Assembly: GCA_051874735.1 (NCBI GenBank)
Contig: JBJEGD010000040.1
Span: forward strand, 26,438-90,437
Source of the DNA: Candidatus Bruticola sp.
GTDB taxonomy: Bacteria > Vulcanimicrobiota > Xenobia > Xenobiales > Xenobiaceae
Direction of reading: 5' to 3'
Length of the DNA: 64,000 nt
Shown: one piece after another, positions 4,932 through 40,125 of the stretch
Layout: each line of letters begins with the position of its first letter
Numbering within the stretch: the stretch's first letter is position 1
The notes under the pieces: model-generated
The model's database searches: none
Told to the model about the DNA's origin: nothing
Seen by the model: only the letters and a program-made list of their open reading frames with translations
Made by a program: the position numbers and the translations under genes

Positions 4932-4937
4932 AAACTT

Positions 4938-6977: not shown

Positions 6978-7025
6978 CTTTTAGCAGAGAAAAAAGATAA
7001 TTGGGGCAGAGGCGTAAAAAGCCAT

Positions 7026-7682: not shown

Positions 7683-7731
7683 GCTTTATCGGTTAGTGCA
7701 TTTCTAGTGTTTAAAAGGCAAAAATTAGTAT

Positions 7732-9671: not shown

Positions 9672-9752
9672 ACTCTTTATTATAAGAATATCTGTAGTTA
9701 GACGCTAGCGTCTCCAAACTCTTTAAATGGAGGAATAACATTTTTTCTCTTC

Positions 9753-9780
9753 TTGACAAAGATTGGCGATGTTGTAGACT
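9753..9780 (+). promoter_or_regulatory. Putative sigma70-type promoter for the ABC exporter
   Basis: TTGACA (9753-9758), 16 nt, TAGACT (9775-9780), about 50 nt before the start codon. Confidence 0.5.
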
Positions 9781-9832
9781 TTTTGGGCATTTGTTTCCGC
9801 CATATTGTAAAAATTAGGAAAGCGTAAGAGTT

Positions 9833-11809: not shown

Positions 11810-11850
11810 CAGGAAGAGCTTGTCTATAGTTAACTAACATCATAAACAAT

Positions 11851-11919
11851 CGAGCTGAGAAAATGTCTTTGCTCTTGCTAACTAATGGGCAGAGACAAAC
11901 TTCTGAGCTCGTTTTTTTT
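11851..11919 (+). terminator. Intrinsic terminator-like hairpin after the ABC exporter
   Basis: Imperfect long stem CGAGCTGAGAA...TTCTGAGCTCG followed by T8. Confidence 0.6.
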
Positions 11920-11963
11920 GATTTATTATTTCTTTATTTGATTATCGACTTTCCAAACTTAAT

Positions 11964-12011
11964 AAAAAAACGTTCTTGCCAGGGCTTGACAGCCATTTAG
12001 ACAAGAACGTT
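11964..12011 (-). terminator. Intrinsic terminator-like hairpin for the nuclease operon
   Basis: Inverted repeat AACGTTCTTG...CAAGAACGTT preceded by an A-run (U-tract on the minus strand). Confidence 0.55.
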
Positions 12012-12128
12012 AGCCTATAAAAAAAGTAAACAGCACGAACGGTAATACTTTAGACTAAAATTGTCTGCTTGCTTTTTTATCGGAGATTTCAGATAAAAAT
12101 TAGCCTGGAACAGTAAAAACTCAGCTAA

Positions 12129-13166: not shown

Positions 13167-13171
13167 ATTTT

Positions 13172-13591
13172 TTAACCTTTGCGTACAAAAATTTCTTCAG
13201 TAATTTTTTCATGAGAAGAGCCTACAAAGTCGGCAGAGCTTATTTTCTGCCATTCTTGAAGCAGATTCAAGTCAAAATAAAAATCAGCAGGATAAGTTCT
13301 GTTCCACCTGTAGATAATTATTCGTTCTATTTTATCTTTGTAAGCGGCTGCCGAAACATTTTCCAGGAAACAGTAATCCCCAGATGAAGCTTCACTTAAA
13401 AAATTTTTGCTGATAGATAATTGCTCTGGAGCCGCTTGCGAAGCAAATTGTTCAGCTGAGTAGGCGTTTAAAAACAGCTTTTTACCAGACAGTTTAGAAA
13501 TTAATCTCTCGCGCATCAGTCTATCTTGACTTTGACGCCGGTTATTGAACATTAAGCCGTTTTGATTATCTAGAGCGGCTACGAGAATCAT
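13172..13591 (-). CDS. Small protein with DHFR-like N-terminus, conserved hypothetical
   Basis: 'MILVAALDNQNGLMFNNRRQSQD' resembles the DHFR N-terminus; 'IIIYRWNRTYPADFYF' and 'FVGSSHEKITEEIF' typify this family. Confidence 0.65.
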   Translation of the reverse strand: MILVAALDNQNGLMFNNRRQSQDRLMRERLISKLSGKKLFLNAYSAEQFASQAAPEQLSISKNFLSEASSGDYCFLENVSAAAYKDKIERIIIYRWNRTYPADFYFDLNLLQEWQKISSADFVGSSHEKITEEIFVRKG

Positions 13592-13891
13592 ATGCTTATT
13601 TTTCCTTTCTCAAGTTCAGCTGCCCAGTGAAATAATTTACCGTTTAGTTCGTAATCTGCTCGGCAGCCGCGGATAGATTTTCTTCTTAACTAATAAATAT
13701 TGCAAGATCTAGTGAGAATTTTTTTGACTGAAGCTGACCTAAAAAATTGGCTTTATTATTTAGTTTTTGCTTATGTGCTGCGCTGATAATATCTTTACTT
13801 TTATAAGTTATGTTTTGAAATAGAGCTTGTAAACGGGGCGGGGTGGTCTTGTTTTTTTAGCAAGGCAGCCGTCTCAAAGGGGGGAAAAGTA

Positions 13892-15454
13892 ATGTTTGCC
13901 AATATTTTTACGGCCGCTTTAATCGGTGTTAATTCTCATTTGGTTTCTTGTGAAGTCGATATTTCTAGAGGTTTACCTAGGTGTATAGTGGTAGGCCTGC
14001 CCGATGCTGCTGTTAGTGAAGCTGGTGAGCGCGTTTGGGCCGCTTTCAGTAATTCCGGTTACGAGGCGCCGGTGGGGCGGGTGCGCATTAATTTGGCTCC
14101 GGCTGAGCTGCGCAAAGAAGGAGCCCGCTTCGATCTTTCCATGGCTTTGGCCGTTTTAGCCGCCGATGAAAACTGTGATTGCGTAACGCCAGATATGGTG
14201 AAAAATTGGCTAGTGTTGGGTGAATTAGCTATGAACGGACGAGTTCGCGGCGTGCGCGGTGTGTTGCTTTCCGTTTTAATGGCTAAACGCTTGGGCTTTA
14301 CTAATGTTATGGTGCCCCAAGAAAATTTAGCTGAAGCCTCACTAGTAGAAGGGATAAACTGCCAGGGAGTTTCCTGTTTGGCGCACGCCGCCGCCTTAGT
14401 TAGCGGCCAATATCAAGAAGCTATGGCTATAGAAGCGGGACAGCAAACTGAATATGCCCATTATATTGGCAGCTCAGCAGAACTAGTTAGCAGCTCTGCG
14501 GAGGAGAACGATCTTAAATATGTCTGCGGTCAAGCGGTCGCTAAGCGCGGATTGGAAATTTGTGCCGCCGGAGGACATCATATTTTGATGCTGGGGCCTC
14601 CAGGCTCAGGTAAAACTATGCTGGCCCGTTGTTTGTCGTCAATTTTACCCCGGCTCAGTCGCGAAGAGGCCATCGAGGTGGCGGCTATTCACAGCGTTTC
14701 TCAGTGCTTCAGCTCTAAAATGCTTCAGCAAATTCCCTTCCGATCCCCTTCTTCCAATATTTCTGCAGCCGGTTTGTTAGGTAGCATTCAGCCTGGAGAA
14801 GTTACTTTGTCTCATAAAGGTATTCTCTTTATGGACGAGTTCCCCGAGTTTCGGCGCGATTGTTTGGAAGCTTTACGTCGTCCTTTAGAATCAGGGCAAA
14901 TCGAAATTGCCAGAGCAAAAGTTCATACTCAGTATCCTTGTCGCTTCACCTTAGTGGCAGCCATGAATCCTTGTCCTTGTGGTTATTGGGGCGATCGTGA
15001 AAAAAACTGTATCTGTCAGCCGTCCAAGCGTCTGCGTTATTTATCGCGCCTTTCCGGACCTCTTCTTGATCGTATCGACCTGCAAATTCAGGTATCGCGC
15101 GCTTCTGCCGCTGAATTGCTTGAAACTTCTTTAAGTGAAAGTTCGGCTCAAGTTCGCGCTCGAGTCGAAAGAGCTTTAGAAGTGCAACGTCAGCGCGGCT
15201 GTCGCAGCGCCTTTATGAATGCTGCTCAAACCCGCCGTTTCTGCCTTCTCGATAAAGAGAGTCAAAAATTTTTAGCCGATGAGGTCAAGAAGCGTCATCT
15301 CTCCGGAAGAGTTAAAGATCGTCTCTGTCGCACCGCTCGGACTATAGCCGACCTGGCCGGACGTGACCATATTATTTTGAGTGATTTATGCGAAGCTATG
15401 GAGTACCGAGCTTTCGATCGTTTTATGGCTTCCCTGGACAGTCGCTTTGTATAA
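13892..15454 (+). CDS. comM: YifB/ComM Mg-chelatase-like AAA+ ATPase
   Basis: 'VGLPDAAVSE', 'INLAPAELRKEG..FDL', 'GPPGSGKTMLA', 'LFMDEFPEF', 'AMNPCPCG', 'LSGPLLDRID', 'ARTIADL'. Confidence 0.93.
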   Translation: MFANIFTAALIGVNSHLVSCEVDISRGLPRCIVVGLPDAAVSEAGERVWAAFSNSGYEAPVGRVRINLAPAELRKEGARFDLSMALAVLAADENCDCVTPDMVKNWLVLGELAMNGRVRGVRGVLLSVLMAKRLGFTNVMVPQENLAEASLVEGINCQGVSCLAHAAALVSGQYQEAMAIEAGQQTEYAHYIGSSAELVSSSAEENDLKYVCGQAVAKRGLEICAAGGHHILMLGPPGSGKTMLARCLSSILPRLSREEAIEVAAIHSVSQCFSSKMLQQIPFRSPSSNISAAGLLGSIQPGEVTLSHKGILFMDEFPEFRRDCLEALRRPLESGQIEIARAKVHTQYPCRFTLVAAMNPCPCGYWGDREKNCICQPSKRLRYLSRLSGPLLDRIDLQIQVSRASAAELLETSLSESSAQVRARVERALEVQRQRGCRSAFMNAAQTRRFCLLDKESQKFLADEVKKRHLSGRVKDRLCRTARTIADLAGRDHIILSDLCEAMEYRAFDRFMASLDSRFV

Positions 15455-21954: not shown

Positions 21955-22554
21955 ATGTCTATCAATTCCGTTAACTCTTTTGCTAGTACTTACAGTGCGT
22001 CCGCTCCTGTATACAGCAAGGAGCAGACCAATGGCGAAGCTGTTGCAGTTCAAGCAGAACCGCAGGAAATGTTCGCTCTAAGCGAAGAAAGCAGCGATCC
22101 CATTGCTCAAAAGCCTAGCTTTGCTACTCGTGCCGTTCGCAATGTAGCCGGTGTGGTAACTGGAGCTATTGGGGCTGCTGCTGGAGCCACTAAGGGTGGC
22201 TTAGTTGGTGCTGCTGAAGGCAAAGTGAGCTTATCTCACGATGCTAAAATTGTTCTGCAAACTATTGGTGCTTCTGCCGGTTTAGTGGCCGGCTTGGCTA
22301 TTACTGGTGCTGTCGGTGGTCCGGTTGCTCTGGTGGGTGGTTTGATTGCCGGTCCTTTAGTCGGATCAATGGCTGGTGGTGCTGTAGGTGGTGCTGTTGA
22401 GGGGCTCGGTTCTGCTTTGGTCGGTGCCGGCCCTGGTGCTGTCAGAGGTGCTAAGAAAGGCTTCGACATCGGTCGTACCGTAATCGACAAGATTGTAGCC
22501 AAAGATACTCCTGCTCCTCAAAATGACAATCAAACAAAGTCTCTCGGTGAGTAG
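21955..22554 (+). CDS. Glycine-zipper (GxxxG repeat) protein with Ser/Asn-rich N-terminus
   Basis: Long G/A/V-rich runs 'AGVVTGAIGAAAGATKGGLVG' and 'GGLIAGPLVGSMAGGAVGGAVEG'; has its own terminator. Confidence 0.75.
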   Translation: MSINSVNSFASTYSASAPVYSKEQTNGEAVAVQAEPQEMFALSEESSDPIAQKPSFATRAVRNVAGVVTGAIGAAAGATKGGLVGAAEGKVSLSHDAKIVLQTIGASAGLVAGLAITGAVGGPVALVGGLIAGPLVGSMAGGAVGGAVEGLGSALVGAGPGAVRGAKKGFDIGRTVIDKIVAKDTPAPQNDNQTKSLGE

Positions 22555-22665: not shown

Positions 22666-24480
22666 TCATTCAGTTGTATCGATTGCTTCAAGCTTGTCTT
22701 TTAAAACTTTAATAAATTGTTTTTCATCGGTATGCAGGTTCAAACTGCAGGCCTTATTGAACATGTTCAAGCTTTGGGCAATATCATTTCTTTCCAAGTA
22801 AAGCTGCCCCAAAACCAAATAAGGGTATCCATCCTGCGGAGCTTCTGAGGCTAAAGATTTTAAGGATTGCTGTAGAGAAGCGCTGCGTTCCGATTTAAAA
22901 GCTCCGCGAAGCCACTGAATTTTTAATAAATAACTGTTGGGCAATTTGTTGGCTAAAAGAGCCGCTGTGTCGTCTAGTTCGTACCAAAGACGCTGGTCGC
23001 TGCAGAATTGGCAGATTGCTTCTGCCATGAAATTGGGCATAGCGTAAGAAGATAAGCTTTGCAGCTGGCAGGCCGCTCGGGGGCTCTGAATAGTAAATAT
23101 GTACAAGAATGCTCGGGCTTCGATAACGTCTGGATGACGTTGAGGCAGCTTACTGAGCCAAAATTCAGCGGCCTGCCAGTCATATTTAAACATAGCTTGC
23201 CAGGCCTGTAACATTTTGGCTGCCGGTTCTTCCATCAGGCTTAGGTCTTTTGTTTCTTCGACGGTGAAATGGTGCTGGCGAATCCAAAATTTGGCCCTGC
23301 TTATATTCTGAGGATTGGCTTGTATTTGCTGCTTTATTTGCTTCCAATCTTGAGATGAGGAGTCGCCTGGCACAGGTTGTGGGGATGGTTGGATATTTTT
23401 TAAAGCTGAAGCTAGATCGAGTCGGCTTCGTGATCCGTTTAGACAGCTTTTGTAAGTTAGCATTTTATGATTAACCTTAAGTTTTAAGGCTTCAGAATCT
23501 AAAAGAAATTTTTGAGTTTTGGTTTGAACTTGTTTAATAATATTGGCAGTTGGTTCTTCTGAAGCTTTGACTCCTTTGCTATCGTCACCTATATACCAGA
23601 CTACTAAATTCGGATCTGTTTTAGCAAAGCAACTTTGGCGGGTATAAGAATATCGCCCTTGAGCTGAATCGACGGGTACATATCCCAAAGTAGGACAAAA
23701 AACTTCACACCAGGAGTGGGTTAAGGGCTCTCGAGGTTGGGATGTGCTTAACAGCAGACCTCCGCTTATTCTCACTTTAAATCCGTTTAACTGTAGCAGC
23801 TTGGCAGTAAGTATGGCAGCGTCTGAACATTGCAGACGGCGATCTTTTAACATAGAGGCAAAAGATGTTTTAGCTTTTTCTGAACCATAATTAAAGTTAG
23901 TGCGCATAAAATCGTAAACAGATAGCAATTTATAAAGATCAGTCTTTTGGCTACCCGCAGCTTGGGAAGCTAATTTATGCAGCATTTCTTCTTCTTCAGA
24001 CGAAGTTGCTGTTAAAATTTCATGCCAATAATCCGCTTGAAAGACTCGGCGCTCTGAATTTTGTTGAGCAGCTGCTTCCCAATCTTGCAAGCTGAAATTG
24101 TAAACTAAGGCCTCATTTTCCACAACAGCCTGTTGACTGATCGTAAAAAATTGCCCAGGTTGTATGGTGAGCTTATTGTAATGGGCATAAGTATTGCCAA
24201 ATTCATCGCGGCTTTGGCTATCTGGTTCAGGAGTTAGGCGGAAATCGGTAATTTTTTGTCTGTAAGGCCTATTTTGCAATAGGGGAACTTTTAAAGAGAC
24301 TAGGCAAGTATAATTGTGCAAATTTTGGTAGCTTACATCGAGAGTAAGACGGCGTTTAATGCTCTCACAGTCTTCTACAGACGGCATGGGTTGAGCTGTC
24401 GATAGGTTGCAACTCTGGCGGCAGCCAGCCAAACTAACTAAGGCAATTACAATTAAGGCCGAAAACAATTTATGAATCAT
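22666..24480 (-). CDS. Transglutaminase-like lipoprotein with C-terminal TPR-like helices
   Basis: Lipobox 'SLAGC'; 'DEFGNTYAHY'; catalytic triad in 'LQCSD', 'HSWCEV', 'VPVD'; TPR-like 'YLVLGQLYLERNDIAQSLNMFNKA'. Confidence 0.8.
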   Translation of the reverse strand: MIHKLFSALIVIALVSLAGCRQSCNLSTAQPMPSVEDCESIKRRLTLDVSYQNLHNYTCLVSLKVPLLQNRPYRQKITDFRLTPEPDSQSRDEFGNTYAHYNKLTIQPGQFFTISQQAVVENEALVYNFSLQDWEAAAQQNSERRVFQADYWHEILTATSSEEEEMLHKLASQAAGSQKTDLYKLLSVYDFMRTNFNYGSEKAKTSFASMLKDRRLQCSDAAILTAKLLQLNGFKVRISGGLLLSTSQPREPLTHSWCEVFCPTLGYVPVDSAQGRYSYTRQSCFAKTDPNLVVWYIGDDSKGVKASEEPTANIIKQVQTKTQKFLLDSEALKLKVNHKMLTYKSCLNGSRSRLDLASALKNIQPSPQPVPGDSSSQDWKQIKQQIQANPQNISRAKFWIRQHHFTVEETKDLSLMEEPAAKMLQAWQAMFKYDWQAAEFWLSKLPQRHPDVIEARAFLYIFTIQSPRAACQLQSLSSYAMPNFMAEAICQFCSDQRLWYELDDTAALLANKLPNSYLLKIQWLRGAFKSERSASLQQSLKSLASEAPQDGYPYLVLGQLYLERNDIAQSLNMFNKACSLNLHTDEKQFIKVLKDKLEAIDTTE

Positions 24481-24604
24481 TGTTTATTTGTTCTTATGTT
24501 TAAGATTGTTTTACAGTTTAACATAAAAGGCCGCAATTTTGACAAAATTAGAGGAAGAGGAGGGCTTTGAGCTGAAAGTGGGGCTCGTTTCTGGAGGGAT
24601 AATT

Positions 24605-25489
24605 GTGAAATATTATTGTTATTCTGCTGTAATATCTGTGCTTTGGGCGGTAGCAACCGTCTGTCTTCCCTCGCTAGCTGCCAACGAAGATTCTTTATCA
24701 GTGAATCCGACTAGCAAAAGTCATACTGGTGTGGATACTGTCACTATTTCTAAAGTTACACCTCGCACTTCAGCCGATATTCCTCAGAATTGTCAGTTGC
24801 CCGTGGTGCTGCTAGCTGATTATCAGCTGCAATCGTCCAGTAGCGGCTTAATAAAAACTAGAGCCTTCATCTGGTCGCCTAAGGATAAGGGCAGCTCTAG
24901 TTATAAAAAGGGGCTGCGTCCTATTTCTGCAGTGATGCAGGCAGCCGTAAAAAAAGGCAGTGGAAGTGTGAAAGTTTCTTTCCCTCCTTTGGCTATGCCT
25001 GTTAAAGCAGATCCTCAAACTCAGTTAGTTGTGGTTTCTAGCTTACAGAACAGTGCTCATAAAGAAATTGCTTGGGGAAGTAGCTACAATTTTGTGCGCG
25101 GTTCTATGATGTTGACTAAGACCGCTGACAAAAGTCCGCGTTCCGCTATCACCGTTTTAGACTTCTCGCCTAAAGTCGGCACTCTAACTGTAGGCAAAAC
25201 TCAGGAATTTACTTACAAGTTTCAATACAGCCTTAAAGAACAAGATTACGGTTTTGTTAACTTCGAATTGAAAAATGCTCTGGACAGTTTTGAAACTAGC
25301 CCTTGGTACTGTGCAGCTGTACCAGTTCCTAAAGGAGCAGGAGTTGTAAAGTACGTTTCAGGTAGATACTTTTTCCCGTACATGTACAAATTCTATAAGA
25401 TGCGTTTGGGCGTTCTTTATCGCACTGAACCTTTGGGAGGTACTGTTGATGCGCTATTTTACGGGGATTGGCAGCTTGCTTCTAACTAG
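24605..25489 (+). CDS. Secreted protein with two tandem beta-rich repeats
   Basis: GGAGGG RBS before in-frame GTG 24605; signal peptide 'ISVLWAVATVCLPSLAA'; internal duplication visible. Confidence 0.65.
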   Translation: MKYYCYSAVISVLWAVATVCLPSLAANEDSLSVNPTSKSHTGVDTVTISKVTPRTSADIPQNCQLPVVLLADYQLQSSSSGLIKTRAFIWSPKDKGSSSYKKGLRPISAVMQAAVKKGSGSVKVSFPPLAMPVKADPQTQLVVVSSLQNSAHKEIAWGSSYNFVRGSMMLTKTADKSPRSAITVLDFSPKVGTLTVGKTQEFTYKFQYSLKEQDYGFVNFELKNALDSFETSPWYCAAVPVPKGAGVVKYVSGRYFFPYMYKFYKMRLGVLYRTEPLGGTVDALFYGDWQLASN

Positions 25490-25566: not shown

Positions 25567-26217
25567 ATGAACATAGCCTTCGTTTTAAATTCAGCCGTGC
25601 TTTCTGCTACTTGGTCCTCATTCAGAGATCGCGCCGAACGAAAAGGTGAGGGCAGTGCTTGTCAGCTCGACGGTGGAATTTTGCTGAATGTAGCTGCCGA
25701 AAGGGCTCTTTCTAAAGAAATTAAGGCCGCCGAACAATTAAAATATTCCGATTTAGTTCTTCCTGAGACTAACTTCCATGTTCAGTCTGTCAATTTGGTT
25801 CCTTCAATGCGTTCCAGAGTTAGCAAGGCTTTGCGCAATTTGGTAGATGGTTTTGAGCTGCCTCTGGTGCGTCGCAGTTTCGTCTGGTCTGGTTGTTTTG
25901 CGATGCTGGCTTCCGTAATTCTGAGCGGCAGTCAGCCAGTCAGTGCTGAAACTATTCCTGTTTGCTCTAAGACCGCTGTTCAGTCTGTCAGCCCCGTTCA
26001 AGGGCTGCTGGCAGCCACCGAGGTCGATCCTGTCAATCATGCTCTGCGTTTAGGCAGTGCTTGGGGATCCTACGCTGATTCGGATAGTAGCCATACAAAT
26101 ATCCCTGCTCAGCATATAAATATACCTAACGGGCAGCACAGCAACAGTGCTCATCTTCCATTAGGCAGCAAAGGACACACTCCTCAGGTTCCTCCTGTGA
26201 CTGGGGCCGGAGTGTAG
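25567..26217 (+). CDS. His-x-Asn repeat protein A (candidate RiPP precursor 1)
   Basis: GGGAGG RBS before ATG 25567; internal 'RRSFVW...ASVILSGSQPVSA' signal-like segment; C-terminal HTN, HIN, HSN. Confidence 0.6.
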   Translation: MNIAFVLNSAVLSATWSSFRDRAERKGEGSACQLDGGILLNVAAERALSKEIKAAEQLKYSDLVLPETNFHVQSVNLVPSMRSRVSKALRNLVDGFELPLVRRSFVWSGCFAMLASVILSGSQPVSAETIPVCSKTAVQSVSPVQGLLAATEVDPVNHALRLGSAWGSYADSDSSHTNIPAQHINIPNGQHSNSAHLPLGSKGHTPQVPPVTGAGV

Positions 26218-26284
26218 TTTAGCAACTGATACTAAAGAGAACAGCAGGCTAGTGCAGCCGCTCCATTTCAGAAAGGCTATTTTT

Positions 26285-26842
26285 ATGAGACGATACAGAG
26301 TTGCCTTAGAAAAAGGGACTGAGCTAAATAAAGAGTCGGAATATCTTTTAGAAAACAGAAACCAAGCGGTTAAAGTTAATTTGCTTTCCCGGTTAGGTTC
26401 AGATAGCTCTAGTTTTGAGCTGTCTTTAATATCTTCTAAATATTCTAAGTTGGCTGCTTGTGCTGCGGCAGTAGGGGCTGTTATAGCTGGCCCCGTTCTG
26501 CCTGCTCAGGCTTCTTCTTTGGTAGGGCTGCCTAGCGCTTCTGCCCAAGTGGTTTCTCTGCAGGAGTGTTTTGCTTGTTCAGCTTTAAGTTCTTGCGGAA
26601 AAGAGATTATTTTAGACAGCGCTGTTAAGATTGAATCCCCTGATAATCTGCAGATCGCCCAAGCTAGCTATCATACTAACGGCTCTACCCATGTAAATAA
26701 AACGCCAGTTCCGCATACTAATACTGCTTGGAGCAACCATAGCAACACCGGTGGGCACTCTAATGGCGACTGGGCCAACCATGGCAATACCGCTTCTGGT
26801 ACTGGACACGTAAATTTGGTGCACGGCGACTTCTTATTCTAA
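26285..26842 (+). CDS. His-x-Asn/Trp-x-Asn repeat protein B (candidate RiPP precursor 2)
   Basis: GAAAGG before ATG 26285; internal 'KLAACAAAVGAVIAGPVLPAQA' signal-like segment; last 56 aa contain 7 HxN, 2 WxN and 1 HxD triplets. Confidence 0.7.
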   Translation: MRRYRVALEKGTELNKESEYLLENRNQAVKVNLLSRLGSDSSSFELSLISSKYSKLAACAAAVGAVIAGPVLPAQASSLVGLPSASAQVVSLQECFACSALSSCGKEIILDSAVKIESPDNLQIAQASYHTNGSTHVNKTPVPHTNTAWSNHSNTGGHSNGDWANHGNTASGTGHVNLVHGDFLF

Positions 26843-26870
26843 GCTTAAACTCTTCAACTTTTGTGTCTCA

Positions 26871-26906
26871 GGCTCGGCTCATTGTATGGCTGAGCCGCCT
26901 TTTTTT
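26871..26906 (+). terminator. Terminator/attenuator hairpin between the precursor genes and the SPASM gene
   Basis: GGCTCGGC-N10-GCTGAGCC (one G-U pair) followed by GCC and T7. Confidence 0.6.
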
Positions 26907-26970
26907 CAGCCTCTTTAATCTGCCTTCCCATATTTGTTAAGGTTGATGCAGAGGCCGCGGAGGTTTTGTT

Positions 26971-28176
26971 ATGCTCAATCTGGTTGCTCCAGTAAGCTGC
27001 AACATTATTTTAGCGTCTGAAGCTTGTACGGCTGCTGATACGCTCAGTTTTCAAGAGTGGTCGGCTATTTTAGACCAGCTTGGAGCAGCTAATGAGTTTC
27101 GAGTTTACGGTTTTGAGAGATGGTTTTCTCTTAGACAAGAAGTCGGCGAAACAGCAGAAAATGTTCTGTCTTGGTGGAATAGACTGGATAGTTGCCAAAA
27201 GTGTTTTCACGTCTATTTTGACGGTTCAGTTGCTCTGGAGAAATTTCCCAGCAGTCTATGGGCTGCTCTCTTAAATTGTTCTTATTTAGGAAGCGTAGTA
27301 TTTTGTTTTTCCGGTCAGCGTGCCTTAGCGGAAGAACCAGGCTGGACGCTCCTGGAAAATGCTGCCGCCGCTGGTTTCGATACTGAAGTGTCTATTTTGT
27401 TAACTGAATACAGCGCTTTATCTATTGAAGAGCTTACTAATGAAGCCCTCGACGGTGGGGCGTCGCTAGTTATTTTTGAGCGCTTATCTCCTGCTGAGAG
27501 TGGAGAACTCTCTTTAGAGAGCTTGCGCCGCAGTGCTGAACAAATTAAGGAGCTGCGCCAGCTCGGTGTAGAGGTGGCTATGAGCGGATGCTTCCCGAAT
27601 TGCTTTAGCAAAGGCGATATACCTTCTTGTTTAGCTGGTACGGTTAGTTGTGCTATTACTCCCGACGGGATGCTTCGTCCCTGTCGTTATGTCGACAGTT
27701 CAGGCTGCTTAAGTTTAGTGCACAACAGTTTGACTGCCGCTTGGCGCAGCGATGCTTTTATAAATTGGCGCCGTATTAGTTCCGAGAGTTGTCAGCAGTG
27801 CAATAAATGCAATCTCTGTCCTGGAGGTTGCCTGCTTTATGCTTACAAGAGCGGCGGCCAAGATAAAGATCCTCTGATTTCAGAAACTGAGACGGAGGAG
27901 ACTATTTTACAAGAAGTTACTTTGGAAGATGAACTTTGCCCAGTGCCTTGTTACAACATAAGGGCTGAGGAGTTCGGTTGGTTGTTGATGCGCGGATCTC
28001 GAGTAGTTCCTGTCAGTCCTAAGGCTGCGTCAGTTTTGGCCCGTTTCGATGGTAGAACTACGCTTGGCCAGATAGAAGAAGAATTCGGATCGGGAGCTTT
28101 GTCATTTATTTACTCGCTGTATGTGCGCGGTTTTGTTGAATTTAAAGATATGGTGGCGCTGGGTGAGGACAGCTGA
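26971..28176 (+). CDS. Radical-SAM-fold/SPASM protein with degenerate SAM cluster motif and C-terminal PqqD/RRE-like domain
   Basis: GGAGG RBS; 'LSFQEW..ILDQL' helix; SPASM 'CLAG..SCAITPDG.LRPC...CQQCNKCNLCPGGC'; winged-helix tail 'ASVLARFDGRTTLGQI...FIYSLYVRGFV'. No CxxxCxxC in the N-terminal region. Confidence 0.8.
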   Translation: MLNLVAPVSCNIILASEACTAADTLSFQEWSAILDQLGAANEFRVYGFERWFSLRQEVGETAENVLSWWNRLDSCQKCFHVYFDGSVALEKFPSSLWAALLNCSYLGSVVFCFSGQRALAEEPGWTLLENAAAAGFDTEVSILLTEYSALSIEELTNEALDGGASLVIFERLSPAESGELSLESLRRSAEQIKELRQLGVEVAMSGCFPNCFSKGDIPSCLAGTVSCAITPDGMLRPCRYVDSSGCLSLVHNSLTAAWRSDAFINWRRISSESCQQCNKCNLCPGGCLLYAYKSGGQDKDPLISETETEETILQEVTLEDELCPVPCYNIRAEEFGWLLMRGSRVVPVSPKAASVLARFDGRTTLGQIEEEFGSGALSFIYSLYVRGFVEFKDMVALGEDS

Positions 28177-28222: not shown

Positions 28223-28684
28223 ATGAGGCGAACTTTGAGCCGCGATTTTATGGATTTGGTGCGTCATTTTGCCTACCATGAAAAGCAAATCCATGTTTAT
28301 GGTGTGACAGAGCCTCTATACCGCTCGGAAATTCACGTGGTTTGGTTGGTGGGCGTCGAACCAGGTCTTTATGGAATGAAGCTGGCGAAAAAAATCGGAG
28401 TGACTAAAAGTGCAGCTTCGCAAATTCTTTCCAAGTTAGAGAAAAGGGGCATGATTTCTAGCCGCGTAGCTGCCGATAAGCTAACGAAGCGGGAATACGC
28501 TTTAACTGAGGAAGGCTGGAAAGTCTTTGCTTTTCATGAGGAGTTGCACCGCGAGTTTGAGAAACGCTTTAATACTTTTTTTAAAAAATATACTCCTGAG
28601 CAGCGTAAGTTTTTGAAGACGTTTGTGCAAGACCTCAATAACGTTTTGGACATTTGGTTTACTGACGACCTTTATATATTGTAA
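28223..28684 (+). CDS. MarR-family transcriptional regulator
   Basis: 'LYRSEIHVV', HTH 'LAKKIGVTKSAASQILSKLEKRGMI', wing 'LTEEG'. Confidence 0.92.
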   Translation: MRRTLSRDFMDLVRHFAYHEKQIHVYGVTEPLYRSEIHVVWLVGVEPGLYGMKLAKKIGVTKSAASQILSKLEKRGMISSRVAADKLTKREYALTEEGWKVFAFHEELHREFEKRFNTFFKKYTPEQRKFLKTFVQDLNNVLDIWFTDDLYIL

Positions 28685-32657: not shown

Positions 32658-33458
32658 TCAGACTTGCCGCCAGCGTTTAATGAGCATGGATATTACTAAG
32701 AACAGGCAGGCAACAGCTGTAATAGAAGCACTAGTAGGTAAATCATAACGTACGGACAAGCCCACACCTAAAAAAACTGAGGCTAAAGCAGAAAGCAGGG
32801 AGGCTATGCAAACCCATCTCCAGCGGCAGCTCAAACATAATCCGGTCAGCGGAGGTACTATCAGCATAGCAAATACTAGCAAAGCACCGGCACTGTGTAT
32901 AGCGACAGCTATAGCTAATCCTACCGTAAAGTAGAAGAGCCAATTCCAAAATTTTACGTTGTACCCTAAAGCCTGAGCCATCATAGGATCAAACGAAGCC
33001 AATATAAACTGTTTGCAAAATATGAGGCTCATAGCTGCAATAAAGACTAGCGCGCCAATCATAAGATAAATATCCGTTGAGGTGACGGCTAAAACATTGC
33101 CGAAGAGCAAACTTAGCATATCGCTGTCGGCGTGGGGAGATAAGGCAATAAACAGAACGGCCGCCGCTCCAGCTGCTACGTAAGCGCTGCCTATGAGCCC
33201 TTCTGAAGGAAGTCCGCGTCGATGATCCTTAGCGAAGAAAGTTACTCCTCCCAGCATAAGAATGATGGCTCCTAAACTGCAGGGGAGGTGGAGCCAACCG
33301 CTCATAGCGATGCCGGCTGTTGCTAGTTGAGCTAGGGCTACTCCTACAAAGGTAATACGGCGCAGTACGATCAGCACTCCCAAGTAGGCAGTCATTAAAG
33401 CAGTCAGGGAAGCCGAAAGCAAAGCTAAAGAAGTAAAATCTAAATTATCAATAGACAT
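32658..33458 (-). CDS. Zn/Mn-type ABC transporter permease (ZnuB-like)
   Basis: 'LGVLIVLRR..FVGVALAQ', 'LLFGNVLAV', 'SFDPMMAQALG', 'GALLVFAMLIVP', 'DLPTS'. Confidence 0.92.
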   Translation of the reverse strand: MSIDNLDFTSLALLSASLTALMTAYLGVLIVLRRITFVGVALAQLATAGIAMSGWLHLPCSLGAIILMLGGVTFFAKDHRRGLPSEGLIGSAYVAAGAAAVLFIALSPHADSDMLSLLFGNVLAVTSTDIYLMIGALVFIAAMSLIFCKQFILASFDPMMAQALGYNVKFWNWLFYFTVGLAIAVAIHSAGALLVFAMLIVPPLTGLCLSCRWRWVCIASLLSALASVFLGVGLSVRYDLPTSASITAVACLFLVISMLIKRWRQV

Positions 33459-33499
33459 ATTCTCTCTCAGAAAAAATAAACGGAAGCCTATTTGCGGTA

Positions 33500-34246
33500 T
33501 TATTTATTCCACCGAATGGGACGTCCAAACAGTTTGCTTAAATATTGAGAAGTAAATATCTCTTTAGGTTCGCCCCAGCTTATAGTGCGGCGGCCATTTT
33601 TATCAGAGTGAAAAATGCCGACAATTTGCGCATGTTCGGCCACAATTTCTAACATGTGGGTGACTATGACAACTGTCATACCCTGCTTGTGCAGTTGGGA
33701 GACTATTTCCAGAGTATCTTGGCTAGCTCCTAAATCCATGCCGTTAGTTGGTTCATCTAAAAGTAGGACTTGTGGTTTCGACACTAGAGCTCTGGCCATA
33801 AGTACTCTTTGCAGCTGCCCTCCAGAGAGAGCGCTGATATGAGAATCAGACCAAGCTTCTAAATTTACCTGCTCTAAAGCTTGCTTGACAGCTTGCCGAT
33901 CAGTCGAAGATGGCCAAAATCTGTTTCCCATTTGGGCGTAGCGTCCCATAAGTACAGTGTCAAAAACGGAAAGTGGAAAAGAAGTTTCTAAAGTTTGGTG
34001 TTGAGGCATATAGCCGAGTCCATGCATACGGTGCTGCTCCTGACCTGAAGAGTCAAAAAATTTGATATGACCGCTTATAGGTTTAAGAGCCCCTACTAGA
34101 CCTTTTAAAAGAGTAGATTTGCCGACGCCATTAGAGCCAACTAAGCCGATGTATTTGCCTCTTTCAAGAGAAAAATTTAGCCCTTCTAGTATGGGATAGC
34201 CCCCGTAGCCCAAACTGACTTGGCTGAATTCTGCAAACATAGCCAT
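33500..34246 (-). CDS. Zn/Mn-type ABC transporter ATPase (ZnuC-like)
   Basis: GSNGVGKST, 'GYMPQ', 'VLMGRY', LSGGQLQR, 'LLDEP', 'VTH'. Confidence 0.93.
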   Translation of the reverse strand: MAMFAEFSQVSLGYGGYPILEGLNFSLERGKYIGLVGSNGVGKSTLLKGLVGALKPISGHIKFFDSSGQEQHRMHGLGYMPQHQTLETSFPLSVFDTVLMGRYAQMGNRFWPSSTDRQAVKQALEQVNLEAWSDSHISALSGGQLQRVLMARALVSKPQVLLLDEPTNGMDLGASQDTLEIVSQLHKQGMTVVIVTHMLEIVAEHAQIVGIFHSDKNGRRTISWGEPKEIFTSQYLSKLFGRPIRWNK

Positions 34247-34247
34247 T

Positions 34248-35174
34248 TTATTTCAAAGCCTTAACTAACTGATTAACGTTGTATTCCATCATTTCTAAAT
34301 AAGTAGAAGTATTAGGTAAACTTCCGGGCTGGATGGGCAATTTTAAAGTGGTGGCTCCCGATTTTTGAGCCACAGAGTTGGGCAAATTCTCAGGATACCA
34401 AGGTTCAAAAACTACCACCTTAACTTTAGAATTTTTCATCAGCTCTACAAGTTCGTTGAGTTGGCGGCTAGAAGGAGAGACGCCTGGTTTAGGCTCAATA
34501 TTGCCGCATACTTTTAAACCGAAATGGGCGGCGAAATAGCTCCAAGTGCTGTGATAAGTGACGATATTGCTGCCTGCATAAGGCTGTAATAAAGCTTTCC
34601 AACGTTTATCGGCCTGATCGATTTTATGCCAGTAGGCGCTGTAATTTTTATCATAAATAGCTGAGCCTTCCGGATCGATACGTTTAAAAAAGGCGGTCAT
34701 AGTTCTGGCCACATGTTTTACATTAGTAGGATTGAGAGTATAATGCGGATTTCCGTCAGGGTGAGCATCGCCACGGGAACGATCGACTTTGCCGCTAGGC
34801 TTATCCATAACTTTAATGCCTGAGCTGGCTTCTAAAAAGTTAGGTTGTCCGGGCATAATTTTGGGATTGCGAGCGCTGCGCAGCAGACTGGGAGCCCAAC
34901 CTATTTCCAAGGATAATCCCGTTTCGATGAAAGCATCAGCTTGCTGTAAGGTACGCAGATAGCTAGGTTTTGTTTCCACAAAGTGAGGATCTTGGCCGCC
35001 TTTGGCAATACAGGTAACTTTTACACGGGATCCGCCTATCTGGCTGGCTATATCGGCTAAATCGGGCGTAGTGACAGCCACATTCAAAGTTTTATCGGCG
35101 CATACTGGCTGAGAAAAACAAAAAGCCAGACACCAAACTGTCAGAAGAACGCACCAAAAAGAAGTTTTAGACAT
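34248..35174 (-). CDS. Metal ABC substrate-binding protein (ZnuA/cluster A-I)
   Basis: Signal peptide; 'QDPHF', 'GDAHPDGNPHY', 'TYH', 'IEPKPGVSPS'. Confidence 0.92.
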   Translation of the reverse strand: MSKTSFWCVLLTVWCLAFCFSQPVCADKTLNVAVTTPDLADIASQIGGSRVKVTCIAKGGQDPHFVETKPSYLRTLQQADAFIETGLSLEIGWAPSLLRSARNPKIMPGQPNFLEASSGIKVMDKPSGKVDRSRGDAHPDGNPHYTLNPTNVKHVARTMTAFFKRIDPEGSAIYDKNYSAYWHKIDQADKRWKALLQPYAGSNIVTYHSTWSYFAAHFGLKVCGNIEPKPGVSPSSRQLNELVELMKNSKVKVVVFEPWYPENLPNSVAQKSGATTLKLPIQPGSLPNTSTYLEMMEYNVNQLVKALK

Positions 35175-35207
35175 AAAAAATACTCCTTTATTTAGGCAAG
35201 ATTAAAT

Positions 35208-36893
35208 TTAATATTTATGGGCTCCATGAGGGCCAATTACTACATTCCACTGCAGTAGCAGTTCGTTATAGCTAGGCTGCCAACTGGGAGAAGTTCGGTT
35301 GTATTGCAGTTTTATGGAATTCCATTCGTTGGCGATATACTCTGCAAAGGTAGAGAAGCGCTTAGTTTTGCCGTCTTCAACTAAAGGAGACTCAGCTTCT
35401 TCATAGCGAGCTCCTAAGCGGAAATTTTTATTGCAACGGTACGCTAAATAGGTGTACCAGCCACTCAAATTTTTGTCTTTGAGCATAGAATGGTGCTCAT
35501 GCTCTTCCATTTCTTCAATTTCTTCAGTTCGGTTAGTTTGGTAGGACTGATGAGCCTGCATGTATTCGCTGCGCCAAATGAATTCGCGGTAAGGATCAGC
35601 AGTAGGGCTCCATTTTAGAGTTAAGTCGGCACCGTTAATAGAAGAAGAGCGTATATGCTCGCTGTCTATAGAAGAACTGGCGTGAGAAAGTCCTAAAGTT
35701 AAAGTAGTATCGTCATTAAGCTCAGCCATATTTTCCCAGCGGGCGCTGAACATCGGATTGTGTTTGCCCTCGTTGGGAAACAGTGCAAATTCTTCTTCAG
35801 CCTCTTCGCCGTTGTGGGAATGGCCTTCGATGCGGCTAGTGACTGAGGTGGAAATTTTCGAATACCATGGAGTGGGCAACAGCCAAGATAACTCTACACC
35901 TGGAGTGGATAGTCCCTCTTCGCCTAAAAATTCAGTATAGGGTAGAGGGCGATCTATTTGAGGTAGAGCGTGAGTATGCGTAGAATTTAAAGCTCCAAAT
36001 TCTGTGCGCATTTGGCCAGCGCGTAGTTGTAAACCGCCGCTTAGCCCCATATATTGTATGAAAGCTTCCTCTAATTCCGGACTTTCATTTTGATGGGCGG
36101 CAAAAGTTGCTTCTAAACGGGTAGACGGATCGACTGGGGCTGAAAGCTGCAGTTCAGCTTCCTGAATGAAGAAGCTGTTTTTTGTTGAGCTGTCTTCCTG
36201 GCCGCCTAGTTGGCCTCCGCCTAGCAAAACTAACGAAATGTTAGGATTCATATCTGGCTGTTGGCCGCTGGCCTGAGCAGTGGCCTCTTGGGGGGCCTCA
36301 GAGGCTGAAGGGGGTTCCGGCCCCAAATCTTCAGTTTCACCGTCGTCTGGATTGGCTTGGGCTTCCAACTCGTTAAGCTTCTTAGAGCTATTTAAAGAGT
36401 TATTTTCATTTGGTGAGGACTCCGCTAGAGCTGCTTCCTTTTCCCGATCTAGCTTATCCGTGGGAGCGTCAGCTAGATTTGGGGTTTGCTTGGGCTCCTC
36501 CATTGAGGCGGCAGCTGCTGTTCTCTCTGAAAAACTGCCCTCACCTTGGGTAGCTGCTGTCTGGAACTGACCGCGCCTCATTTCCTCAATCTGAGAGCGC
36601 ATTTCGTCTATTTGAACTTGCTGTTTTTCGATTAATTTGGCTTGATCTTCGAGTAGGCGCTGCTGTTTTTGAAAAAGTTGCTGCAGTTCATCGAGTGAAT
36701 GAGTAGAAGGCTGAGCTGCAGGGGTGGAATTATTTAAGCTTTTAGTATTGTCAGCTGTATTATTTAACGAGGCAGAAGGGCTGCTAAGGTCTGTGGAATC
36801 GACAGTTTCAGCTTGAGCTGAAAGCGATAAAGGACCAGCTAGAGCAGCACCAAGCAGACCAATACCCAGAAGGTGTAGGTGTAGCTTCGGCAA
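35208..36893 (-). CDS. Outer-membrane beta-barrel, porin-like, with coiled-coil N-terminus and His-rich loops (putative metal uptake channel)
   Basis: Signal peptide, coiled coil, acidic linker, then 'MNPNISL', 'EAELQLSAPVDP', 'LEEAF', 'FGALNSTHTH', C-terminal 'IGPHGAHKY'. Confidence 0.8.
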   Translation of the reverse strand: MPKLHLHLLGIGLLGAALAGPLSLSAQAETVDSTDLSSPSASLNNTADNTKSLNNSTPAAQPSTHSLDELQQLFQKQQRLLEDQAKLIEKQQVQIDEMRSQIEEMRRGQFQTAATQGEGSFSERTAAAASMEEPKQTPNLADAPTDKLDREKEAALAESSPNENNSLNSSKKLNELEAQANPDDGETEDLGPEPPSASEAPQEATAQASGQQPDMNPNISLVLLGGGQLGGQEDSSTKNSFFIQEAELQLSAPVDPSTRLEATFAAHQNESPELEEAFIQYMGLSGGLQLRAGQMRTEFGALNSTHTHALPQIDRPLPYTEFLGEEGLSTPGVELSWLLPTPWYSKISTSVTSRIEGHSHNGEEAEEEFALFPNEGKHNPMFSARWENMAELNDDTTLTLGLSHASSSIDSEHIRSSSINGADLTLKWSPTADPYREFIWRSEYMQAHQSYQTNRTEEIEEMEEHEHHSMLKDKNLSGWYTYLAYRCNKNFRLGARYEEAESPLVEDGKTKRFSTFAEYIANEWNSIKLQYNRTSPSWQPSYNELLLQWNVVIGPHGAHKY

Positions 36894-37581: not shown

Positions 37582-38832
37582 ATGAAGACTGTAGCAATGT
37601 TGTTAGCCGGCGGGGAGGGCTCACGACTCACTGTCCTCTCTGAAAAGAGGGCCAAGCCCGCTGTTCCTTTTGCCGGGAAGTTTCGTATCATTGATTTTAC
37701 CTTGTCGAACTGTGTAAACAGCGGCATCAATACTGTAGGAGTGCTTACTCAGTATCGCCCCCACAGCCTTGCCGATCATATCGGTATTGGCAAGCCTTGG
37801 AATTTAGATCGCAACCGAGGCGGAGTGCGCATCCTGCCCCCTTACCAAGAGCGCGGAGGACAGCATTGGTATGCAGGTACAGCCGATGCTATCTATCAGA
37901 ATCTTGGCTTTATCGAGAGCAATAATGCCGATTTAGTACTTATTCTATCTGGCGATCATATATATAAAATGGATTACAATGCCATGATCGCTGCCCATGT
38001 CGCTAATCATGCCGATTTAACTGTTGCAGTTATGCCTGTGCCCATTGAGGAAACGCATCGCTTCGGTATTATGGTGGTAGATGGAGAGGGACGTATTACT
38101 GAATTTTATGAGAAGCCCAAAGAGCGTGATAAAGGTAATTTAGCTTCTATGGGCATCTATATTTTTAATGCCAGCATTTTAGCAGAGCGGCTTAAAGAGG
38201 ATCCGGGAGTTAAGGTCGATTTCGGTAAAGATATTATTCCTTCTATGGTAGAGCGCGGCGATCGCGTGTTTAGTTATCGCTTTGAAGGTTACTGGGTCGA
38301 TGTCGGCACCATCGATTCCTACTGGAATACTAATTTAGAACTTCTCAAAGATGGTCATGGTCTCGATCTTTACTCCAATAAATTCCCGGTTATGACTCTT
38401 TCCGAAGAGCGTCCGGCGGTAAAGATTGGACCGCAGGCTAAAGTAACTGGTAGTTTGCTCTCCAATGGTTGTGTAATTAGGGGTACAGTTATAAACAGTG
38501 TGCTCTCTCCTGGTGTGTATGTCAGCCCTGGAGCCGTAGTGATGAATTCTGTTCTGATGAACGATACTTGGGTCGGACCAGGAGCTCGTCTGGATAAATT
38601 GGTGCTCGACAAACGCGTTGTCGTAGGCACTGGAGCGCAAGTAGGCGTGGGCGATGAGAGTGTGGCTAACGAAGATATGCCGGATAAACTTTTTGCCGGT
38701 ATAACTGTAGTTGGCAAAGATTCAATCATTCCTGAAGGAGCCAAGATTGGCCGCAATGTACTTATTGGCATCAATAAAGATGAGAAAGATTATCCTGAAG
38801 ACAGAATAGTAGGAGACGGTAAGAGCATTTAA
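37582..38832 (+). CDS. glgC: Glucose-1-phosphate adenylyltransferase, catalytic subunit
   Basis: 'LAGGEGSRL', '[17 protein letters not shown]', 'WYAGTADA', '[11 protein letters not shown]', 'EKP', 'SMGIY', 'YWVDVGT'. Confidence 0.97.
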
Positions 38833-38862
38833 CCCGTCTGCGCTCAGACAAAGGAGCAAATT

Positions 38863-40125
38863 ATGTCTAATACATTAGCAATGATTATGGCTGGAGGGGG
38901 CAGTCCCGGCCTAAGTGTGCTTACTGAAGTCCGTGCCGATGCTGCTGTAGAGTTCGCTGGTAAGTTCTGCCTAATCGATTTTCCGCTGTCTAACTGTGTA
39001 AACTCTGATATTTATAATGTGGCTGTATTGACTCAGTACCGTCCTCAAACGCTCAATAGTCATATCGGAACTGGCACTCCCTGGGATCTAGACTTGAATC
39101 AGGGAGGTGTGCATTTACTACAGCCTTACAGAGGCGGGGTCTATGGCGACTGGCAAAAAGGTACTGCCGATGCTGTGCGCCGCAATCTCGATTTTATTAT
39201 GGCGCAAAATGAGGAGTATGTGCTTATCCTGTCTGGAGATCATATTTACTCTATGGATTACCGTCCCTTAATAAACGCCCATATTACTAATAATGCCGAT
39301 GTAACTATTTGTGTACGCAATGTAAGCAGCTTCGATGCTCATCGCTATGGAATGCTTTTGGTTAATAACGATCAGCGTGTCTACGGTTATGAAGAGAAGC
39401 CTAAGCGTTCCCACAGTTGTTTAGCGAATATGGGCATTTATGTCTTCCGCAAAGACTTTTTGGTTAAAATTTTAACTGAGCACGATTTGAACGATTTCGG
39501 TCGCGATTTGCTGCCTTACGTAATAAGCCAGCATCACCGTGTGTTTAGCTATTATTTCCCTGGGTATTGGGCCGATGTCGGCAACATTCAGTCCTATTGG
39601 GAAGCTAATATGAGTTTGCTGGCTGAGGAACCTGCTCTCGATCTCTATGATAGCGGTTGGGTTATCCATACTCGTTCTATGGATCAAGCTCCGGTGCGCA
39701 TCGGTTATCAAGCTAAGGTGGCGGACAATATTCTTTCCAACGGAAGCAAGGTAGACGGTGACGTCAGTCGCAGTGTGATTTCTTCTGGGGTCGTCATTGA
39801 AGAGGGCGCAATAGTTAGGAATAGTATTTTGATGCGCGGCGTTTACGTTAAGAAAGGTTGCGTTATCGATCACTGTATTATCGATTGCGATTGTGTTATT
39901 GGAGAGAATTGTCAAGTTGGTGTGGGCGAAGACATTGTTCCTAACAGAGAAATGCCGAGCGTTTTAAATACTGGTCTTACTCTTATAGGTAAAGCCCGCA
40001 TTTTAGCTCCGGGTACTGTAGTTGGACGCTCCGTCATTATTCACCCAGCCCACGGAGTCAAGATCGCTCCCGAAGTAACGGGTGAAATTGGCAGCGGAGC
40101 CAGTGTTGGTGAAGCTGAGCGTTAG
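38863..40125 (+). CDS. glgD: Glucose-1-phosphate adenylyltransferase, second (GlgD-like) subunit
   Basis: GlgC paralogue with degenerate 'AGGGSPGL' and 'RADAAV' (Arg and Lys of the catalytic motifs lost), in tandem with glgC. Confidence 0.8.

Follow-up and report, generated by a model that had tools for sequence, protein, structure and literature searches.

HxN-repeat proteins and a pseudo-radical-SAM/SPASM protein with a C-terminal recognition element in a lineage-specific cassette of Eremiobacterota

A stretch of 64,000 nucleotides from Candidatus Bruticola (class Xenobia, Vulcanimicrobiota/Eremiobacterota; source genome of 2.47 Mb), referred to as a whole as the window, carries two proteins rich in His-x-Asn and Trp-x-Asn triplets (A and B) and, directly behind them, a third (C) that combines a pseudo-radical-SAM domain (SAM, S-adenosylmethionine), an intact SPASM domain and a C-terminal RiPP recognition element (RRE; RiPP, ribosomally synthesised and post-translationally modified peptide). 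This region is a lineage-specific cassette of Eremiobacterota, and the family pair formed by A/B and C is confined, as far as searched, to this phylum, gut-associated Xenobia included (Table 1). It is judged probable, with moderate confidence, that A and B are a Sec-exported pair ancestrally matured by a radical SAM (rSAM) enzyme, and that their partner C is here a non-radical, leader-binding Fe-S escort. The same genes had been read earlier, in what is called here the original prediction, as a candidate RiPP system of HxN-repeat precursors and a maturase-like gene.

The open reading frames (ORFs) and triplet strings of that prediction are exact: A contains three triplets and B nine, which read in order HTN, HVN, HTN, WSN, HSN, HSN, WAN, HGN and HVN (seven HxN and two WxN) and are followed by the C-terminus HGDFLF. 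The genome has 8,629 stop-to-stop ORFs that reach 60 aa, and none except B exceeds four [HW]xN triplets in any 70 residues: B has nine, the runner-up four and A three. An exhaustive profile search of 1.84 billion proteins gave 45 representatives of the B family at E <= 1e-3 and 38 at E <= 1e-10 (nine were found by a word-indexed search), and 36 of the 45 were examined after exclusion of nine which were fragments, A-type or chimeric rows, or the weakest matches. The last 80 residues of these 36 hold on average 8.6 triplets, compared with 1.28 in composition-preserving shuffles. Taking into account both the genome ORF count and the shuffles, the triplet pattern is not due to chance. The median representative has seven HxN and two WxN triplets, mostly with T or S as the middle residue, and the C-terminal residue is F or Y in 36/36, within an invariant end that reads H-x-N-x-V-x-G-D-[FY]-x-[FY]-COOH.

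The two proteins share a common build. In B, a leader (residues 1-54, MRRYRVAL..VKVNL..FELSL) is followed by a hydrophobic segment (55-76) ending in AQA↓SS, a linker, the triplets and the terminal GDFLF-COOH, while A has a conserved N-terminal extension from residue 1 to ~103, a hydrophobic segment (104-121), VSA↓ET, a linker and the triplets. Across A and B proteins, this N-terminal extension is conserved over 50-110 residues. The family alignments define the motifs M-[RK]-x-[YF]-[RK]-V-x-L, V-x-V-x-L and [WFY]-E-L-x-L in leaders of the B type; A has a conserved N-terminus of its own, and has in common with B the order V-x-L...[FW]-E-x-x-L, helix and A-x-A. In the alignment of the A family (10 sequences), the N-terminal motifs, [FW]E.x.L, the hydrophobic helix and the HxN arrays are common to all. 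Among the 36 B-family representatives, a hydrophobic 15-mer (mean Kyte-Doolittle value of at least 1.6) starts at residues 48-110 in 34, is preceded by a [WFY]-E-x-x motif in 31 and has an A-x-A just past it in 28; the first triplet lies downstream of the segment in 33. In its AlphaFold2 (AF2) model (predicted local distance difference test, pLDDT, of 55), B is disordered except for a helix at 54-67 and a short one at 93-101.

From these sequence features, A and B would be paralogous exported proteins of the same build, with N-terminally extended Sec signal peptides whose extension is read as a leader, and the A-x-A after the helix looks like a signal-peptidase site. They do not resemble short RiPP precursors: the proteins are 185-216 aa long and contain a signal-peptide-like segment, and the cassette includes no protease or ABC exporter. 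Other identities were considered and rejected. Type IV pilins would require a G↓F-x-x-x-E motif, which is absent, and the long N-terminal extension is unlike a prepilin leader; an outer-membrane barrel is at odds with a mature part of ~110 aa that is predicted to be disordered; and N-glycosylation sequons do not fit, the residues past Asn not following N-x-S/T in register.

As in the original prediction, no named family was recognised for A and B. Neither has a match in Pfam, or in NCBIfam at E up to 0.1, the His-Xaa-Ser models suggested for a check being included in the latter; PADLOC assigns no defence family to B, C or U (the gene upstream of A) and gives only weak winged-helix matches for the neighbouring MarR protein, and a single marginal match of A, to Orf5 (E 0.0042, 13.7 bits), was disregarded. 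A literature search, carried out without most subscription journals, found no published description of HxN repeats or of the cassette.

Some relatives depart from this build. In one genome (G016, locus L030, 7012-9319), A and B are enlarged to 25 and 29-31 HxN triplets, arranged in a regular 15-residue double unit, P-H-T-N-T-F-T-P-H-S-N-T-A-G-T, and the neighbouring C is without rSAM cysteines. In the database protein P0063, an N-terminal leader of the A type is joined to a tail of the B type ending in GDYVF, so that leader and tail modules are exchangeable. In G055 (L071, 3790-6657), several tandem A/B paralogues use H-x-D besides H-x-N and end in SDYIY, and one copy of B is apparently split in two ORFs (4186-4578 and 3790-4173).

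In the third protein, C, a pseudo-radical-SAM domain is combined with a SPASM domain that is intact and with an RRE at the C-terminus. The full set of SPASM cysteines that had been claimed for it is present: C scores above the cut-offs of both PF13186 (27.2 bits against 21.5, E 5e-6) and TIGR04085 (37.2 bits against 27, E 3e-9), and its cysteines (C220-x12-G233-x4-C238, C274-x2-C-x5-C-x3-C287 and C323) follow the seven-cysteine pattern of the domain, C-x9-15-G-x4-C ... C-x2-C-x5-C-x3-C ... C. These residues, and C207 and C211 too, are invariant or near-invariant in an alignment of 14 homologues of C. In the same alignment, a gap of 13-17 residues after strand 1 takes the place of the loop in which relatives carry the cysteine triad, and C has YGFERW where these have GGEP. 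The search with PF04055, the radical SAM family, gave no match for C at E up to 0.1; in the whole genome this model has 33 matches (31 above the cut-off), none of them on the contig of the window. Since the cysteine loop is deleted and the GGE lost, C can neither cleave SAM nor itself form cyclophanes by that route, and a maturase making about 10 cyclophanes cannot be upheld for this genome as encoded. The N-terminus M-L-x-L-x-x-P is common to all 14 aligned sequences, which indicates that the start codon assigned to C is right.

The AF2 model of C (pLDDT 78, predicted template modelling score, pTM, 0.73; pLDDT ~90 over residues 10-170) has the partial TIM barrel of rSAM enzymes, with Z scores of 15-19 against PqqE, SuiB, SkfB, anSME and viperin. 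The best structural matches are PqqE (6c8v; Z 19.3, 268 residues, root-mean-square deviation (rmsd) 3.7 Å), SuiB (Z 18.4, Foldseek E 7.5e-12) and SkfB (Z 18.2), although sequence identity to the PqqE/PqqD, SuiB and SkfB proteins is only 14-16% and the cysteine triad is missing in C. The likeness to a RiPP-type rSAM/SPASM maturase, as originally predicted, is borne out by these matches together with the RRE. The tail of C, described earlier as PqqD-like, is so by its fold and not by hidden Markov models (HMMs). It has four strands followed by three helices, and residues 320-393 superpose on the RRE of PbtF with bound peptide (8t19_A) with Z 8.9 and rmsd 2.4 Å over 74/86 residues, and a tail profile searched against the PDB finds PqqD (3g2b) first of only two matches, at E 0.16; on the other hand, none of seven C tails matched the Pfam family PqqD (PF05402) at E up to 10. 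The RRE of C is fused at the C-terminus, whereas SuiB carries its RRE at the N-terminus and PQQ biosynthesis uses a free-standing one.

Far from decaying, C is under purifying selection. In four within-genus pairs, dN/dS is ~0.09-0.13 in the N-terminal domain, 0.08-0.12 in SPASM and 0.03-0.05 in the RRE, values that are rough because dS is saturated (0.9-1.7), and mean column identity in the RRE is 62% (13 sequences). A complex prediction between the RRE (residues 312-401) and the leader of B (1-60) scored 0.02 against a mark of 0.32, without controls, and counts neither for nor against binding.

Close relatives of C include both active and dead enzymes. Among 29 protein clusters that share its tail, 11 match PF04055 and 18 do not; those with a tail at least 71% identical to that of the window all lack the match, and at 61-67% both kinds occur, the active P0019 (67%) among them. 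A metagenome scan for the B tail, made with a 14-row alignment, gave three loci: in L066 the B tail is directly followed by P0019, with CX3CX2C and GGEP, and in L064 and L065 A and B accompany a C without the triad. A CX3CX2C enzyme also stands beside A- and B-like genes in G072 (L067) and G047 (L036), and P0020 likewise carries this motif. A second form, CX4CX2C with GGEP and scoring with PF04055, is found in family f11 and eight database clusters, or nine clusters counting P0082, the protein of G060 itself; the cysteines of CX4CX2C spacing in P0009 sit within strand 1, outside the cluster loop. A maximum-likelihood tree of 27 homologues groups the 14 sequences of f1, the family of the window, in one clade (support 100/100) in which no member has a canonical triad; throughout it the cysteine loop is deleted and the GGE degenerate. 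The tree does not settle how the f4, f11/f17 and G047 branches join at depth, so that one to three losses of the triad are compatible with it.

Further rSAM genes were seen along the way. At L036 (G047, 4736-15035), five paralogous B12-binding radical SAM genes, of ~440-470 aa each, lie around A-B-C. On contig C32 of G000 (L062, 4472-7510), two tandem rSAM/SPASM proteins of 497 and 503 aa (CSLRCTYC and CNLACRYC) with long N-terminal extensions, and a J-domain/TPR (tetratricopeptide repeat) protein upstream, may be a separate pair of peptide maturases. On contig C5 of the same genome (L063, 3885-5603), a 444-aa rSAM/SPASM protein (CNLNCPYC) behind a 97-aa Cys/Asp-rich ORF may be another precursor/maturase pair.

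The three genes were also followed across genomes, for joint occurrence and for adjacency. In 9/16 genome loci compared, a C homologue is immediately preceded by a B-like ORF and usually by an A-like one as well; these loci belong to genera g1, g2, g4 and g5 of family f1, to family f4 and to G047. HxN neighbours are thus found beside C homologues and the triplets are conserved among the homologous ORFs, an observation on which the original prediction had staked itself beforehand. In a survey of 401 genomes of the phylum, the C-tail profile was detected in 26 (22 at E <= 1e-29) and the B profile in 19, and all 19 fall among the 26; these counts overstate independence, since the surveyed genomes are kin. 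The three strong C-tail genomes (of 22) without HMM-detectable B are G011 and G012, where contigs end, and G047, which has a divergent B-like gene. The most telling part is the joint presence or absence of B and C inside one genus: among nine other genomes, five have both, and four, 88-97% complete, have neither.

The remaining 7/16 loci have no adjoining B-like ORF. In G060, P1-P4-A-B (P1-P4 being pseudopilin-like genes) ends at a contig edge and C begins another contig, and in G055 the A- and B-like copies are 9-10 kb off and on a second contig; G049 is considered below. The other four (G045 twice, G048 and G052) have only 25-28% identity to C and lie in genomes without B. In distant loci generally, the neighbours include, by Pfam, Kelch and pyridine-nucleotide disulfide oxidoreductase proteins, B12-rSAM paralogues and two proteins without family, none of them conserved across loci.

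Taking all this together, the following course of events is proposed. C derives from peptide-modifying rSAM/SPASM maturases of the PqqE/SuiB/SkfB fold with an RRE fused at the C-terminus, and the ancestral enzyme would have modified A and B radically in the cytoplasm before export, because sister lineages keep the SAM-cluster cysteines beside B-like genes. This modification could have fallen on the triplets, in the manner of triceptides, on a single site, in the manner of HxsA (discussed below), or on the invariant C-terminal G-D-[FY]-x-[FY]. In the lineage of the window, C would recognise the leaders of A and B through its RRE while these are still in the cytoplasm, and would either accompany the two proteins to export or retain them for a redox step that involves only its auxiliary clusters. 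Leader and signal would afterwards be cut off in one piece by signal peptidase, setting free an HxN domain of ~100 residues outside the cytoplasm, where the mature domains would act, probably with the minor-pseudopilin set, as the gene linkage suggests. Since the triplets are kept, and even expanded, under a dead enzyme, the role of the array would be independent of a cross-link at every triplet, which argues that the array itself has a task, for instance to bind a metal, a polymer or a partner strand.

Several points weigh against this proposal. The escort or chaperone role of C has been reached by elimination, and A and B could instead be membrane-anchored proteins with the N-terminus in and the C-terminus out. 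Linkage is not universal: in G049, A-B lie on another contig and C stands mid-contig without them. Pseudopilin genes are linked in 3/6 families with long-enough loci, which could partly reflect shared ancestry. Finally, there are four true rSAM/SPASM genes on other contigs of the genome, so that an rSAM enzyme acting in trans is conceivable.

This last point bears on an improbable alternative, namely, that the earlier RiPP model holds and each triplet is closed into a three-residue cyclophane by C, or by another rSAM/SPASM protein recruited through the RRE of C. The triplets do fit the aromatic-X-X3 logic of known triceptides: His rings are described in HAA, HNR and HTK (enzymes HaaB, YhhB and HtkB; PMC11499958), and, in the group of XyeB and the xenorceptides, xenorceptide A2 has WVN, FAR and WSK rings and a C-terminal Phe (bioRxiv 10.1101/2024.12.16.628070). 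The likeness extends to His or Trp in first position, Asn in the third (the WVN ring), a maturase of rSAM/SPASM fold and a C-terminal core ending in an aromatic residue. In addition, C has the fold of a RiPP maturase plus an RRE, active orthologues adjoin B-like genes in other lineages, and the layout between B and C is that of a leaky terminator, the terminator-like hairpin announced after B having been found, with a T-run behind it (spacer fold z = -3.4 against shuffles). However, C has no cysteine triad, GGE or PF04055 signal, there is no rSAM gene on the contig or among the neighbours conserved across loci, and the other rSAM/SPASM proteins bear N-terminal extensions of their own and therefore do not obviously need C. 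Lineages with a dead enzyme retain the arrays, which in one genome have even grown. Unlike in triceptide systems, the enzyme lacks the radical centre here, that feature of an active synthase being present in the sister lineages L066, L067 and L036; C reaches only 16 bits with the YhhB and DynA models of NCBIfam (cut-offs 445-450); the substrates are 185-216 aa long with a signal-like helix; the RRE is C-terminal; and Gly-Gly protease, HlyD and ABC exporter genes are absent.

The HXS anti-phage system offers a second comparison. The system (PMC13128918) comprises HxsA, with His-Xaa-Ser repeats, the rSAM enzymes HxsB and HxsC, and HxsD. HxsA undergoes cytoplasmic maturation by enzymes of the rSAM/SPASM type before it acts in the periplasm; a change of +8 Da falls on the last of its five HxS repeats only, yet all five are needed. 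In both cases a protein and not a short peptide bears tandem repeats of His-x-small polar residue, and HXS sets a precedent for arrays in which not every repeat carries a cross-link. However, the repeats are HxN/WxN here and not HxS, and A and B are without an NCBIfam match; a single C with a fused C-terminal RRE and without the rSAM cluster stands in place of two rSAM enzymes plus HxsD; no HxsD-like neighbour and no peptidoglycan-binding domain were detected; and here the leader precedes a signal-like helix and there is linkage to pseudopilins. There is no PADLOC match either, the presence of HXS models in PADLOC 2.0 being unchecked. Thus, the cassette fails the defining tests of both HXS and triceptide systems.

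The best NCBIfam match to C is MftC (TIGR03962), over residues 128-295, with E 3e-10 and 39.8 bits against a cut-off of 265, so that C falls outside this family. The target of MftC is the Val-Tyr at the C-terminus of its substrate, and B ends in the invariant G-D-[FY]-x-[FY]-COOH. The difference from mycofactocin biosynthesis lies in the absence of MftA-, MftB- and MftD-like genes and of an rSAM cluster. The cassette is of a known kind, rSAM/SPASM-RRE maturation of a repeat-bearing exported protein, with three unusual traits: a leader ahead of the signal helix, linkage to pseudopilins, and conversion of a maturase to a pseudoenzyme throughout a clade.

Across 17 loci, the only conserved neighbours of C are B, A, U, the four pseudopilin-like genes and, further off, a GlgC-like pair. 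The order is U-A-B-C-(MarR)-P1-4 in genera g1 and g4, with MarR in g1 only, and U...P1-4-A-B-C in g5, where the pseudopilin block lies between U and A; in G060 the block immediately precedes A-B, and in G047 it is found within 6 kb. Homologues of U stand beside the cassette in 6/16 other loci; one of the six lies 3 kb from C in G049, a genome of a different family. It is also improbable that the region is an accessory module of a pilus or type II secretion system (T2SS), with A and B as cargo or tip factors of a fibre primed by P1-P4 and C as a relic of little function. The pseudopilin set stays by A-B-C through the rearrangement in f1, and is adjacent or near in G060 and G047; the two secretin/ATPase sets of the genome lie on contigs other than this one, the locus accounts for three of only 13 N_methyl genes in total, and A and B look exported. 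Nevertheless, C is no relic, since all three of its domains are under purifying selection, the loci of f4, f17 and f19 showed no flagged pilin genes (several of these contigs are short), and such a module is compatible with the escort proposal and not exclusive of it.

The escort proposal can be extended in this direction, as a tentative and rather unlikely version: RiPP logic would have been grafted on Sec export, C would be an Fe-S pseudoenzyme escort or a SAM-independent redox maturase, and A and B would work with the tip of a type IV pilus or T2SS pseudopilus. More boldly, in lineages with active enzymes the B tail, W-x-N-H-x-N...G-D-F-x-F-COOH, would be cross-linked into a rigid β-strand mimic, like BamA-binding cyclophane peptides.

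The immediate surroundings in the window suggest yet another function, which is regarded as very improbable: that A and B are periplasmic or surface His-repeat proteins that bind metal, for instance scavenging zinc, and that C is a mere co-inherited neighbour or an unrelated Fe-S protein. The last 60 residues of B contain 13% His and 15% Asn, and the repeats outlive the loss of the radical centre; moreover, within the genus the cassette comes with a MarR protein whose best NCBIfam match is to the zinc-dependent AdcR and abuts a ZnuA/ABC-3/ABC_tran operon and a porin. However, outside the genus the cassette is found without MarR and the Znu operon (MarR homologues occur only in L010 and L043), and the AdcR-like match has 31.8 bits against a cut-off of 175. 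B and C occur together in 19/19 genomes and are lost together within the genus, C has a peptide-recognition fold, Asn is a poor metal ligand, and metal binding leaves the invariant W-x-N-H-x-N and G-D-[FY]-x-[FY] unexplained.

With regard to its wider relevance, the cassette defines an unnamed family pair, HxN-repeat A/B plus an rSAM/SPASM protein with C-terminal RRE, and provides a natural comparison between active (CX3CX2C, CX4CX2C) and dead maturases beside the same substrates. This comparison makes it possible to test which roles are left to SPASM auxiliary clusters and RREs once radical chemistry is gone, and whether each unit of HxS/HxN arrays has to be modified. The layout of a leader before a signal peptide suggests a general way of coupling cytoplasmic modification to Sec export, and linkage to minor pseudopilins is not what one expects of an rSAM system. 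It is, moreover, a warning for genome mining that SPASM, an RRE and a repeat-rich ORF need not amount to an active RiPP cluster.

Table 1. Cassette genes, their domains and the flanking features, with positions in the window
Feature	Position	Strand	Description
U	24539-25489	+	316 aa; secreted; hydrophobic N-terminal segment; no Pfam family; only a marginal NCBIfam match
A	25567-26217	+	216 aa HxN protein
Triplets of A (HTN, HIN, HSN)	26092-26145	+	residues 176, 183 and 191
B	26285-26842	+	185 aa HxN/WxN protein
Nine triplets of B	26672-26815	+	residues 130-177
Terminator-like hairpin and T-run	26871-26906 (hairpin 26871-26896)	+	between B and C; 9 pairs, 6 of them G-C; consensus match and fold z-score
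C	26971-28176	+	401 aa; SPASM and C-terminal RRE fold
C, pseudo-rSAM domain	26971-27570	+	residues 1-200; partial TIM barrel without CxxxCxxC loop and GGE
C, SPASM domain	27589-27939	+	residues 207-323; 9 conserved Cys (C207, C211, C220, C238, C274, C277, C283, C287, C323)
C, RRE	27928-28149	+	residues 320-393; PqqD-like winged-helix; most conserved part of C
MarR-family regulator	28223-28684	+	PF01047, E 5e-8
Pseudopilin-like block P1-P4	28866-32603	+	PF07963 N_methyl in P1, P3 and P4
P1	28866-29516	+	
P2	29519-30394	+	
P3	30391-31833	+	
P4	31863-32603	+	
ZnuA, ABC-3, ABC_tran operon, then porin-like gene	32658-36893	-	directly past the pseudopilin genes; porin-like protein of 561 aa

Close upstream of A, a GGAGG Shine-Dalgarno sequence and two promoter-like sites are found, and Rfam gave nothing over its gathering scores anywhere in the window. 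For U, an Atlas search returned unnamed clusters only (score <=0.91, low recognition).

Beside U, and divergent from it, lies a gene (22666-24480, minus strand) for a lipoprotein-like protein of 604 aa with a transglutaminase core (PF01841, E 1.5e-10) and, in its C-terminal part, TPR-like matches that are sub-threshold only; a homologue occupies the same position in the same-genus locus L043 (49%), and there is a 28% match in L041 (G048). Further upstream (21955-22554, plus strand), a Gly/Ala-rich protein of 199 aa, of unknown family, has 85% identity to its counterpart in L043. On the other side of the cassette, two tandem paralogous GlgC-like nucleotidyl-transferases (37582-40125, plus strand; 416 and 420 aa) make up the pair mentioned above, which four other genomes of the family also have close to the cassette.

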